Sequence record: NZ_CP095281.1
Strand: one strand, 5' to 3'
DNA length: 64,000 nucleotides
From: a plasmid
Position numbers: made by a program. Below, in pieces: positions 16,801-19,800 of the stretch. Each line of letters starts with the position of its first letter. Positions within the stretch are counted from its first letter, which is position 1.

Positions 16801-19800
16801 AGGCTAATCACAATAAAACAGACCTGGAGTTAAAAGGACAAGATCAGCATCTTAAGGACGTAACCGCTATGCTTTCAAAAGGGGATATGTCGCTTGTGGA
16901 GGCACATGAAAGGCTTATGGAAGCTGGGTTGTCAAAAGAAACAGTTAATAAGAGTCTATCGCATTATTTTGCTGAGGAATTAATGAGTATGCCTGTTTCA
17001 CCAGGGAATGATAAACCTATAGAGATTCAGAAGACTTATAGCTCACCAAAGCATGAAATAGACCTTGATATTTAACATTGGGCCGAAAGGCCCTTTTTCA
17101 TTTTTAAATTCACACTCTGGTTCCTGAAGTGGGTGAACGAGGGGAGGGGGCATTGCAGTGCTGCAACCGCTCGGGGCACTCCGCTGGTCAGCCCACTCCT
17201 ACCTCTCCGCGGTGGTGCGAGATCTGATCCGGCTGGCGTGCTGCTGGGCCATGGCCATGTCCCCGGGCGGGACGGCAGACAGGGGTCATCACCTGGTGGG
17301 CAACCCGGTCCGGCGGCCTGGCTCCCAGGGGCGGGTGATCGCGGGCAGAAGCGCGCTGCAGTGCTGCAACCGCTTGAGGCACCCCGCTGGCCGGCAGCCC
17401 CAGCCTCTCCCAGGTGGTGCGAGATCAGATCCGGTGGGCGTGCTGCTGGACCATGGCCAAGTCCCCGGGCAGGACGGCAGGCAGGGGCAATCACCTGGTG
17501 GGCGGCCCGATCCGGCGGCCTGGCCCTGAGGGGCGTGTGAACGCAGGCAGGTTCGAGCTGCAGTGCTGCAACCGCTCGCGGTGCAGTGTCGGCCGGCGAC
17601 GTTGCCGAGCTGGGGTCACCGGTGGGGTGCTGCTGGGCGATGGCCAAGTCCCCGGGCGCGGCGGTGCGCTGAGATCATCACCTGGTGGGCGGCCCGATCC
17701 GGCGGCCTGGCCCTGAGGGGCGTGTGAACGCAGGCAGGTTCGAGCTGCAGTGCTGCAACCGCTCGCGGTGCAGTGTCGGCCGGCGACGTTGCCGAGCTCG
17801 GGTCACCGGTGGGGCGCTGCTGGGCGATGGCCAAGTCCCCGGGCGCGGCGGTGCGCCGAGATCATCACCTGGTGGGCTACCCGGTCCGGCGGCCTGGCTA
17901 CCAGGGGCGGGTGATCGCGGGTAGGAGCGAGCTGCAGTGCTGCAACCGCTCGCGGTGCAGTGTCGGCCGGCGACGTTGCCGAGCTGGGGTCACCGGTGGG
18001 GCGCTGCTGGGCGATGGCCAAGTCCCCGGGCGGGACGGTAGGCAGGGGCCATCACCTGGTGGGCGTCCCGGTCCGGCGGCCTGGCCCTGAGGGGCGTGTG
18101 AACGCAGGCAGGAGCGAGCTGCAGTGCTGCAACCGCTCGCGGTGCAGTGTCGGCCGGCGACGTTGCCGAGCTGGGGTCACCGGTGGGGTGCTGCTGGGCC
18201 ATGGCCAAGTCTCCGGACGCGGTGGCACGCCAGGGCTAACACCTGGTGGGCGGCTCGGTCCGGCGGTCTAGCCCACAGGGGGCGGGTGATCGAGGGGAGG
18301 AGCAAGCTGCAGTGCTGCAACAGTTCGAGACACCCTGTAGGCCGGCGACATTGCCGAGCAGGAATCACCGGTGGGAACACTGCTGGGCCAAGTACCCGGG
18401 TGGGACGGCAGGCAGGAACCATCAGTTGGTGGGGGAGCCGGTTCGGAAAGCTGTGGCCCTGCTCGACAACGGGGCTCTAGGGGGGCAAGGGGCGATTCTC
18501 TTTGCAGTCCTGCAATAATTAGGAAAATACTATTTTCGAGCTGCGTTTAACACTTTATAAAATTACTATTTTGTCAAATTTAAATCTGCTATTATATTGA
18601 AAGTTAGATATTAATGGGAGGCCATATGTTGAGTAAGATAGAGATTGACCAGCAAATTGGTTATGGAAGCGACAGGGCTTTCCGCTATTACCTTCTATCA
18701 TTTTCAGTTATGGCACTCGGATTTATATCAGTGTTTTTTGTGGGCGTGGGAATAATCATCCTACTCCTGTCAATAGCCAATGTGCACCATGAAGTAAAAG
18801 ATGCTTACGCTAAAAATAACGTGTTAATTAAATTCTCTGAGAAAGAGATAACTTCTGTTTCTAAAAATTTTGAAATCGCATTTTTAGAGACGGTGAATGA
18901 CGTTCAAGACGATGATGTTGATGAACACAACACTGGGCCATCTTCTCTTTCTAGTAGAGCGGGGTGTGCAGGTGACCGTGTTTATGATTATTTTCATGAA
19001 CAAACGCAGAGAAATCTTCATAGGTAAAGAACAAAAAACCCGGCCTTGGCCGGGTTTTCTTTATCTCTTAGGTAGTGGTGAGCCTTCTTTAACTATTGAG
19101 TCATGCGATATCTCTACTGCTGGTCTCGCATCGGATGTATTTTTAGAGTTATCCCCAAAAATATCAAACCCACTGTTTTCTGGACTGCTATTACGTTGTT
19201 GAGCTGCAACAGCTTGTTCGACCATGCCTCTAACATCTTGCTGCTGAGTAGGGAAGGCAGTGCTACCCATCTGGACCGGTTGATTAAACTGATCCGCGAC
19301 AGAGACGGGGCTTACTGTTGGATGCACTTGTACCTGGTGCGCAGCAGCATGAGCAGTGCGTTCGGTCGCAGCTTGCTGAATGACCTCCTCTCGAGGAAGC
19401 GCAGGTGTCCCCGGCTCCTGCTTAGGGCGTGAGCCAAGCAGGTAGTCATACTCCCGCTGAGGTTTAGGTTTGGTAGGGACAAGAACTTTCTCTTCTGCAT
19501 TGTGGTCAAGGTCAGATTTAAGCAAGTTAAATTTATCTGGATCTCTGGCTTCTTTCAATTTCTGTTCAATATCACTTTCTGTAGCCTTATCAGGAGACAT
19601 TTTAAATATTGAACTTGTCTCATTTCTATCCCCTTCGCTTTTGTTCCTATCTCCCATCATGGGGGAATCGCTAAAGCTGCTCAGCTTATTTTCCCAATCT
19701 GTTTGCATTGCATTTCCTTTATCAAGAAACGCACGCTCACCATCAGTCTGTCCAGGCTGCCTAATTGCTGCCTGGGGCACGGCGAGTTGTTCGGTGCGGA

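Follow-up and report, generated by a model that had tools for sequence, protein, structure and literature searches.

What is the block of very guanine- and cytosine-rich (GC-rich) repetitive DNA that follows the relaxase gene in the plasmid record NZ_CP095281.1, and what might it do for a plasmid? The 64,000-nucleotide stretch of this record analysed here, referred to below as the window, is a pAsa8-like Aeromonas plasmid backbone in which the repeats, which we call array A, lie immediately after traI, with each unit headed by a short palindrome. An earlier reading made from the sequence alone (the original prediction) offered three possibilities: the array could be a set of centromere-like or operator sites for the plasmid's ParB/KorB homologue, a recombination hotspot, or a host-derived satellite which the plasmid had captured. 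We find that array A is a real, GC-rich and non-coding tandem repeat, and with slightly better than even confidence we regard it as a tandem expansion of the pAsa8 lineage around a pre-existing candidate ParB/KorB-type box, which would serve as a centromere-like site or a silencing hub. The box itself, TTGCAG-NN-CTGCAA, is most probably the recognition site of a KorB-like, chromosomal-type plasmid ParB, judging from its distribution and conservation.

Array A covers positions 17153–18515 of the window and consists of seven tandem units in plus orientation, the heads of which were located directly and start at 17153, 17356, 17558, 17745, 17932, 18119 and 18307, with a terminal palindrome at 18502–18515. 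The units are 203, 202, 187, 187, 187, 188 and 195 bp long and have a GC content of 0.64–0.74 each, compared with approximately 0.36–0.47 in the flanks and 42% in the surrounding tra DNA, in good agreement with the earlier description of about seven copies of a ~190-bp unit forming a block of about 70% GC in tra DNA of about 40% GC. The two periods proposed at that time, about 187 bp and, for the first two units, about 200 bp, were both recovered by Tandem Repeats Finder (202 bp at 17154–17578 and 187 bp at 17431–18375, with 83–88% matches), and the autocorrelation of the array peaks at 187 bp. Two subtypes of unit are present, a long one of about 200 bp which includes units A1 (17153–17355) and A2 (17356–17557), and a short one of 187 bp which includes units A3–A6 (17558–18306; 187–188 bp with 84–93% mutual identity); they differ by a 16-nt indel and are mosaic. 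The last unit, A7 (18307–18501), is a degenerate terminal copy with a GC content of 0.64 and 48–66% identity to the other units.

The internal units, including A3–A6, are headed by CTGCAGTGCTGCAA, and all of these heads are one-off variants of the dispersed consensus TTGCAG-NN-CTGCAA, with C for T at position 1. The boxes at the two edges, TTGCAGTGCTGCAA at 17153–17166 and TTGCAGTCCTGCAA at 18502–18515, match the consensus perfectly and have perfect 6+2+6 palindromic arms, as had been noted earlier, and the boxes picked out within the units at that time (ATGGCCAAGTCCCCGGGCG, ATCACCTGGTGGGC and CCGGCGGCCTGGC) are likewise present and conserved. The left edge of the array is ragged because a partial unit of about 35 bp (17118–17152, plus strand), resembling the 3' tail ...GGGTGATCGAGGGGAGGAGCA when aligned with the 3' ends of the units, precedes the first palindrome. 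Each of the six reading frames contains 4–10 stop codons and neither period is divisible by three, so that the array is non-coding, as first proposed.

A second array of the same unit family and orientation, array B, is found at approximately 32443–35346 (plus strand) and has about 14 units of 156–204 bp with a perfect box at 35255. Units of arrays A and B share up to 89% identity between arrays. Adjacent units of array B share only 60–80% identity, and blocks of three units form a 582-bp higher-order repeat with copies that are 95.5–97.4% identical. Array B starts in mid-unit and has an extra partial unit and box at 35269–35346. The closest relatives of the window are pAsa8 (NZ_KX364409), pAsa8-b (CP039630) and two plasmid-like contigs of A. 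rivuli DSM 22539, with several metagenome contigs at 91–99% identity (most at 95–99%), many of which end inside the arrays. Both pAsa8 and pAsa8-b carry arrays A and B and a third array of this family, array C, beside an H-NS gene, and the window carries A and B; no annotation is given under the arrays. The comparison of related plasmids which had been suggested as a check revealed, in these assemblies, different unit numbers for array A: 7 in the window, about 9 in A. rivuli, about 10 in pAsa8 and about 16 in pAsa8-b. This variation and the three-unit higher-order repeat of array B lend support to the recombination hotspot among the roles first suggested. It should be noted that positions 1–17000 of pAsa8-b are repeated at 78700–95589 (traU through parAB) and that the record has many frameshifted genes; since its end repeats its start, this is probably an untrimmed long-read overlap, which would place the true size nearer 79 kb, and its array counts need caution.

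The palindrome is not restricted to the arrays. Perfect copies of TTGCAG-NN-CTGCAA occur 17 times in the window where approximately 0.004 would be expected for 12 fixed bases, and the 14-mer with up to two mismatches is matched 58 times compared with 1.6 expected from shuffled sequences. Fourteen of the perfect boxes are isolated and start at 9037, 13348, 20543, 25470, 28698, 31533, 44032, 45318, 46663, 49046, 50104, 53635, 57899 and 60394, with a further one-off variant at 10132. The first of these (9037–9050) is intergenic and lies 94 bp upstream of the open reading frame (ORF) at 9131, and the box at 53635–53648 is 20 bp before the start of the IncFII-type repA gene (53669). In an unbiased de novo scan ranking all palindromes with 6-bp arms, this sequence was placed first in 8/8 full or 41-kb records having this clade of ParB (the window, pAsa8, pAsa8-b, pO23AP4, pAsa_2939, pWP2-W18, pWP8-S18 and the V. 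fluvialis plasmid NZ_CP046854). The same scan of the IncP-1-like Aeromonas plasmid pKAM329_2, used as a control, found no TTGCAG boxes; what it recovered, ten times, was TTTAGC-N-GCTAAA, which PMC11790492 gives as the sequence of the KorB operator OB. TTGCAG boxes were likewise absent from a Stenotrophomonas plasmid carrying an outgroup ParB.

The box is scattered over every plasmid of the family in Aeromonas, Vibrio and Enterovibrio, with about 15–30 copies per plasmid. We counted 29 copies in pAsa8 and 31 in pAsa8-b, and in plasmids which have no arrays, a different replicon, a classical F-like tra system and a ParB of about 42% identity, there were 7 in pO23AP4, 4 in pAsa_2939, and 7 each in the 41 kb of pWP2-W18 and pWP8-S18. 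The V. fluvialis plasmid is syntenic with pAsa8 and has a ParB with 33% identity and 16 boxes, mostly TTGCAGTACTGCAA, 11 of which are intergenic. Perfect boxes were also found at the flank loci of TraU or ParB relatives from V. vulnificus (L051, five boxes) and Enterovibrio (L052, seven boxes), where the box was again at the top of the palindrome ranking, and in contig L047 (eight boxes). Several positions are syntenic across lineages, including the 3' end of parB, the 5' ends of traF, trbC and dsbC, the region downstream of the relaxase gene and that between traC and trbI, and a box is found upstream of repA in both replicon types. The many dispersed, intergenic-enriched and conserved copies of one palindrome are what is seen in a KorB/OB-type network.

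A perfect 23-bp palindrome at 32118–32140 of the window (GTTGCAGGCAAATTGCCTGCAAC), directly 3' of a small ORF at 31894–32112, has the half-sites of the box 9 bp apart instead of 2, and a lone half-site, GTTGCAG, occurs at 32171; in V. fluvialis the homologue of this ORF is followed by a normal 14-bp box. In pAsa8 (L003), the boxes at 4028, 34121, 36858, 38282, 39858, 41012 and 44873 share a conserved left flank, GGATCCTC..CGC, and five of the seven precede, by 19–70 bp, paralogous hypothetical genes coding for about 300 aa, so that they look like a repeated operator–promoter cassette. Similar sites are found in the window at 57899 and 60394.

A comparison between the window and contig L047 (81% DNA identity, with ParB at 79%) indicates that the head palindrome, as a dispersed motif, has been subject to strong purifying selection, as six orthologous boxes, including ones within traB, traK, parA and parB, are identical at 84/84 positions, and their ±30-bp flanks are identical at only 280/360 (78%; Fisher p = 8e-9). 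Conservation within the arrays was assessed after redefining the units by the anchor ATCACCTGGTGGGC, which kept the head from biasing their selection. In this set the head was the most conserved 13-mer of the unit (97.3%), and amongst 93 unique units the head CTGCAGTGCTGCAA was found in 69, with the right half-site intact in 87 and the left in 74. The dispersal, synteny, conservation and intergenic bias of the box are characteristic of a functional protein-binding site, acting as an operator, a loading site, or both.

The best candidate for the binding protein is ParB. When the three backbone types (pAsa8-like, replicon cluster 1169 and Vibrio type) were compared, the only non-transfer proteins common to all of them were ParA, ParB, a 166-aa ORF and a tyrosine recombinase. 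In the window, parA (48352–49077, plus strand) encodes a Walker-type partition ATPase (Pfam CbiA/ParA; NCBIfam ParA_partition) and has box 49046 in its 3' end, just upstream of parB (49092–50213, plus strand), which encodes a protein with ParB_N (PF02195) and helix-turn-helix (HTH) domains, is above the cut-off for TIGR00180, and holds box 50104 in its own 3' end; a box within the parB 3' end is also found in the V. fluvialis lineage. The protein is of the chromosomal type and matches solved ParB, Noc and KorB structures (E = 1e-8 for the KorB structure 8qa8, with about 28% identity to KorB), and combines an N-terminal ParB domain and HTH with a position beside ParA, as does KorB in its own network. 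The HTH (EAAxxxGxxxTxISRxxKxL...NINT) shows no variation within the clade, down to an overall identity of 32%, and ParB-family HTH dimers are established as recognising perfect palindromes of 14–16 bp. Given the shared ParB, the invariant HTH and the type of palindrome, we infer that ParB is probably the protein which binds TTGCAG-NN-CTGCAA, and hold this with a little more confidence than the role we propose for the arrays. The original link between the array and a ParB/KorB homologue, still a candidate role, gains considerable indirect support, since the box is dispersed, conserved and present in 8/8 records of the clade and in neither (0/2) of the plasmids with an outgroup ParB. Three points on which our interpretation rests had gone unnoticed in the original prediction: the isolated palindromes, the single boxes at homologous sites of array-less relatives, and the one-off nature of every internal head.

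The origin of the arrays is indicated by relatives from V. fluvialis, V. vulnificus and Enterovibrio, which are without GC-rich arrays and have single boxes in the homologous intergenic regions. At the equivalent of the array A locus, V. fluvialis has box 60125 located 2 bp past the relaxase stop codon and L052 has box 20787 between a small ORF and the relaxase gene, and at the equivalent of the array B locus, between traC and trbI, single boxes are found at 74756 in V. fluvialis, 8276 in L051 and 8270 in L052. From this we conclude that the arrays expanded at or beside pre-existing boxes, and did so only in the pAsa8 lineage. The original prediction had recommended searching for the unit in other genomes, and this showed it to be restricted to pAsa8-like plasmids: amongst one genome each of 185,579 species only the two plasmid-like A. 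rivuli contigs were matched, with no match in a chromosome; in metagenomes only pAsa8-like plasmid fragments were matched; and blastn with distant sensitivity against the 72,556 plasmids of PLSDB returned pAsa8 and pAsa8-b only. The proposal that the array is a host chromosomal repeat or satellite captured by the plasmid is therefore rejected. The unit body had no match to viral contigs, and the units, when compared by sensitive blastn with the remainder of the window and with the array-less relatives, gave only chance-level matches of 16–25 nt. Ragged edges also led us to reject a site-specific recombination event that inserted a cassette precisely between two palindromes: array A is preceded on its left by a partial unit, array B starts in mid-unit, and the latter ends with the extra partial unit and box.

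If this reading is correct, ParB dimers would bind the boxes and the arrays would provide zones of high capacity in which the partition complex is nucleated or loaded, in the manner of sopC in F, with the GC-rich 175-bp bodies as spacer DNA and the arrays growing and shrinking by unequal recombination. With one box per unit, array A offers eight clustered candidate ParB sites in 1.36 kb and array B about 15. The arrays may also be hubs for KorB-style silencing of the F-type mating-pair genes located between A and B (traG to traW, 19061–32083), and long-range silencing of this kind is plausible because the boxes are dispersed, with many near promoters, and the mating genes lie between the two arrays. 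A more ambitious version, which we consider doubtful, would see the pAsa8 lineage as having bacterial 'satellite centromeres', in which three arrays of 1.4–5 kb, built of GC-rich ~190-bp monomers with higher-order repeats and one candidate ParB box per monomer, have been selected as super-loading zones. These might have arisen from the ancestral single boxes, perhaps via replication stalling at ParB roadblocks, and could silence the mating genes between A and B, act as incompatibility weapons by titrating the ParB of sibling Aeromonas plasmids having the same box (pAsa_2939 and pO23AP4), and use their GC-rich spacers to keep the boxes free of the plasmid-encoded H-NS.

A number of observations weigh against a centromere-like or silencing role for the arrays. 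The internal heads all have C instead of T at position 1 and have G and C as their neighbours, where isolated sites often have A and T, and in approximately 26% of units the left half-site carries another mismatch; the dispersed sites, too, vary at their outermost base (e.g. TTGCAG..CTGCAT and GTGCAG..CTGCAA). The other boxes in the unit are about 95% conserved, nearly level with the head, which means that conservation alone cannot separate selection from recent descent. Array A is approximately 31 kb and array B 13–14 kb from parAB (48352–50213), with only the single boxes 49046 and 50104 within parA and parB, and as the relatives do without arrays these must be dispensable for the family. 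Box II of ParB reads GEGRWR (GECRWI in Vibrio) compared with the canonical GERRxRA, which makes cytidine triphosphate binding and clamp formation uncertain for the clade; the ENxG box is present. A TrfB/KorA-like protein, a potential palindrome binder, is encoded by the replicon-cluster-1169 plasmids as well, and the array copy numbers rest on assemblies of unequal quality.

The main rival explanation, which we regard as possible but clearly less probable, is that the arrays are neutral or selfish satellites produced by slippage or unequal crossing-over next to a protein-bound box, with the boxes as passengers and no selected function. It is compatible with ParB binding and the two explanations are not exclusive. 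It would account for the absence of arrays outside the pAsa8 lineage, where relatives retain single boxes at the same sites, for copy numbers of 7–16, for the 582-bp higher-order repeat in array B, which is typical of recent unequal exchange, and for the ragged edges, degenerate edge units and a unit body conserved nearly as well as the head. Against this, the arrays have been kept wherever the loci are assembled (pAsa8, pAsa8-b, the window, A. rivuli and several metagenomes), the head is the best-kept part of the unit, chiefly in its right half-site (87/93 units), and at 5–10% of the plasmid the arrays would be costly if useless. An unlikely explanation is that the box is the operator of some other factor titrated by the arrays, such as a KorA/TrfB-like repressor, the 166-aa ORF beside parB, the tyrosine recombinase or a host regulator. 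A TrfB-related gene does adjoin parA in the replicon-cluster-1169 plasmids and has a box just downstream, but no TrfB/KorA homologue was detected in the window or pAsa8 by tblastn (1e-3). The 166-aa ORF and recombinase are found in all three backbone types, but the former has no family match, including none to a DNA-binding family, and for the latter a 6+2+6 site is too short for the core and 15–30 recombination sites per plasmid would presumably be destructive. The box directly upstream of repA in both replicon types would suit any such regulator, and the Aeromonas IncP-like plasmid without boxes is contrary to a general host factor.

Exchange between the arrays could in principle excise or duplicate the 14-kb mating-pair block and so switch the plasmid between conjugative and non-conjugative states, as A and B have the same orientation, bracket traG to traW and have units which are up to 89% identical. 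We think this very improbable, since no A/B fusion or deleted tra block was found in the relatives or metagenome contigs, where contigs break at the arrays, and the apparent duplication in pAsa8-b looks like untrimmed assembly overlap. The least credible explanation, and one to which we give almost no weight, is that the array encodes a structured non-coding RNA or repeat protein, or provides iterons or an oriT, for which the regular repetition speaks and nothing else. No RNA family was found by Rfam at gathering thresholds in the whole window, a two-unit stretch folded on either strand no better than shuffled sequences (z-scores of −0.02 and −0.76), and RNAalifold on 18 units gave a weak consensus with few compensatory pairs and a covariation term of −2.3 kcal/mol; there are also no unique spacers between the repeats, and we reject a structured RNA array or CRISPR-like locus on these grounds. 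A protein-coding repeat is rejected because of the stop codons in every frame and because neither the 187- and 202-bp periods nor the 16-nt indel is a multiple of three. No promoters were found inside the array and no canonical G-quadruplex motif (G3+N1-7) on either strand. The RepA protein is of the IncFII type, a replicon class which is controlled by antisense RNA and is not known to rely on iterons.

Of the known systems, the closest in layout to the proposed centromere-like array is sopC of F, with 12 direct repeats of 43 bp, each with a 16-bp inverted repeat bound by SopB. The likeness lies in the one short inverted-repeat box per tandem unit, and array A has this arrangement of head-to-tail direct repeats in all seven units, each headed by a 6+2+6 box. 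Between 3 and 17 repeats are found in sopC, and a single one is enough (PMC3177203), which matches the variable (7–16) and dispensable nature of the arrays in the pAsa8 lineage. However, the pAsa8-lineage units are 4–5 times longer at 187–204 bp, including a spacer of about 175 bp whose 70% GC is foreign to a backbone of 42% GC, and there are three arrays per plasmid far from parAB plus about 15–30 isolated boxes, whereas sopC is located directly after sopB. In addition, higher-order repeats occur, the boxes inside the arrays are one-off variants of the consensus, and ParB binding is predicted here. In KorB–OB of the IncP-1 plasmids (RK2), a ParB-family protein is likewise paired with a short palindrome dispersed at promoter-proximal, distal and intragenic sites, and KorB combines a role in partition with that of a long-range silencer (PMC11790492). 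Our scan of pKAM329_2 shows OB spread over that IncP-like plasmid in a similar fashion. The operator sequences are not the same (TTGCAG-NN-CTGCAA here and TTTAGC(G/C)GCTAAA in IncP-1), the identity to KorB is only about 28%, and the KorA partner was not found in the window. We know of no natural long-unit tandem arrays of OB in IncP-1 plasmids.

The dispersed parS sites of chromosomes and the plasmid-prophage N15 are also similar, in that identical palindromic sites are found over the replicon, some intragenic and one within parB, as is the B. subtilis parS inside spo0J, but these systems have isolated sites only and no satellite-like arrays. As an analogy only, eukaryotic alpha-satellite has monomers of about 170–200 bp, higher-order repeats, a rapid turnover in copy number and a box per monomer, with no evolutionary relationship, another kind of binding protein, and a bacterial host and putative centromere function in the present case. 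What is unusual in the pAsa8 lineage is the combination of long GC-rich monomers, higher-order repeats, three arrays per plasmid and a clear ancestry from single boxes. Arrays were not mentioned in the pAsa8 literature searched for repeat-related terms, and a full-text search for the palindrome sequences returned nothing relevant, so that within the literature searched the array seems not to have been described before. We note a different amplification in pKAM329_2 (L043), where 21-bp iteron-like repeats are tandemly amplified with a period of about 199 bp over an unannotated 2.2 kb (31900–34080); these repeats are unrelated in sequence to the pAsa8 units.

Plasmids of the pAsa8 type are of interest as carriers of multidrug resistance in a major fish pathogen, and they also occur in wastewater Aeromonas. 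If the box is the ParB site, it would provide the centromere and operator code of a broad conjugative family in Aeromonas, Vibrio and Enterovibrio, partition incompatibility would be predicted between plasmids with different replicons, and the family would offer a natural series of 1, 8, 15 and 27 clustered sites for work on how ParB loading, spreading and long-range silencing depend on the number and spacing of sites. Satellite-like dynamics with higher-order repeats, as in these arrays, are rare in bacteria; the arrays also break short-read assemblies, which is relevant to plasmid surveillance.

Upstream of array A, traI (13626–17075, plus strand) encodes a TrwC-type (MOBF) relaxase-helicase (Pfam TrwC 5e-76 plus AAA_30), and its transcription unit is closed by a terminator-like hairpin, GGGCCGAAAGGCCC, at 17080–17093, followed by a T-run (17080–17100 in all, plus strand). 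Downstream, the right-edge box is 56 bp upstream of the −35 hexamer of a promoter-like site, TTGTCA-16-TATATT (18571–18598, plus strand; a consensus match only), for a small ORF of 137 aa (18614–19027, plus strand) which has a hydrophobic segment and no family match and is transcribed convergently with traG; any part in entry exclusion is speculative. The traG ORF (19061–22855, minus strand) contains six 99-bp tandem repeats at 19770–20364 (96% matches, GC content of about 0.68) which are in frame and add 33 aa per copy. TraG is 1264 aa long in the window, 1495 aa in pAsa8 and 1296 aa in pAsa8-b, and in V. fluvialis the gene includes 10 copies of a repeat of about 120 bp.

Positions 35615–38931, directly at the right-hand border of array B, are an insertion compared with the metagenome contigs L029 and L040. 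It includes an IS5-family transposase gene (35646–36662), a Y2_Tnp/IS91-like fragment (38223–38918) and, on the minus strand, a gene for an FmrO-type 16S rRNA methyltransferase (37145–37987, GC content of about 0.30–0.35) which is likely to be an aminoglycoside-resistance gene. The left end of the window (1–8420) is not plasmid backbone, and encodes CsgG, two curlin-repeat proteins, a truncated UvrA and an IS1595 transposase, with a DNA-methyltransferase gene cut in half at 8099–8422; either the leading region is broken or the plasmid is integrated in, or fused to, chromosomal DNA. In pAsa8 the leading region has a 6.5-kb tandem duplication (55149–61716 and 61717–68284; L004) spanning an antirestriction gene, a gene for a 481-aa ParB-like protein and a DNA methyltransferase gene, with a box directly after each of the ParB-like genes.

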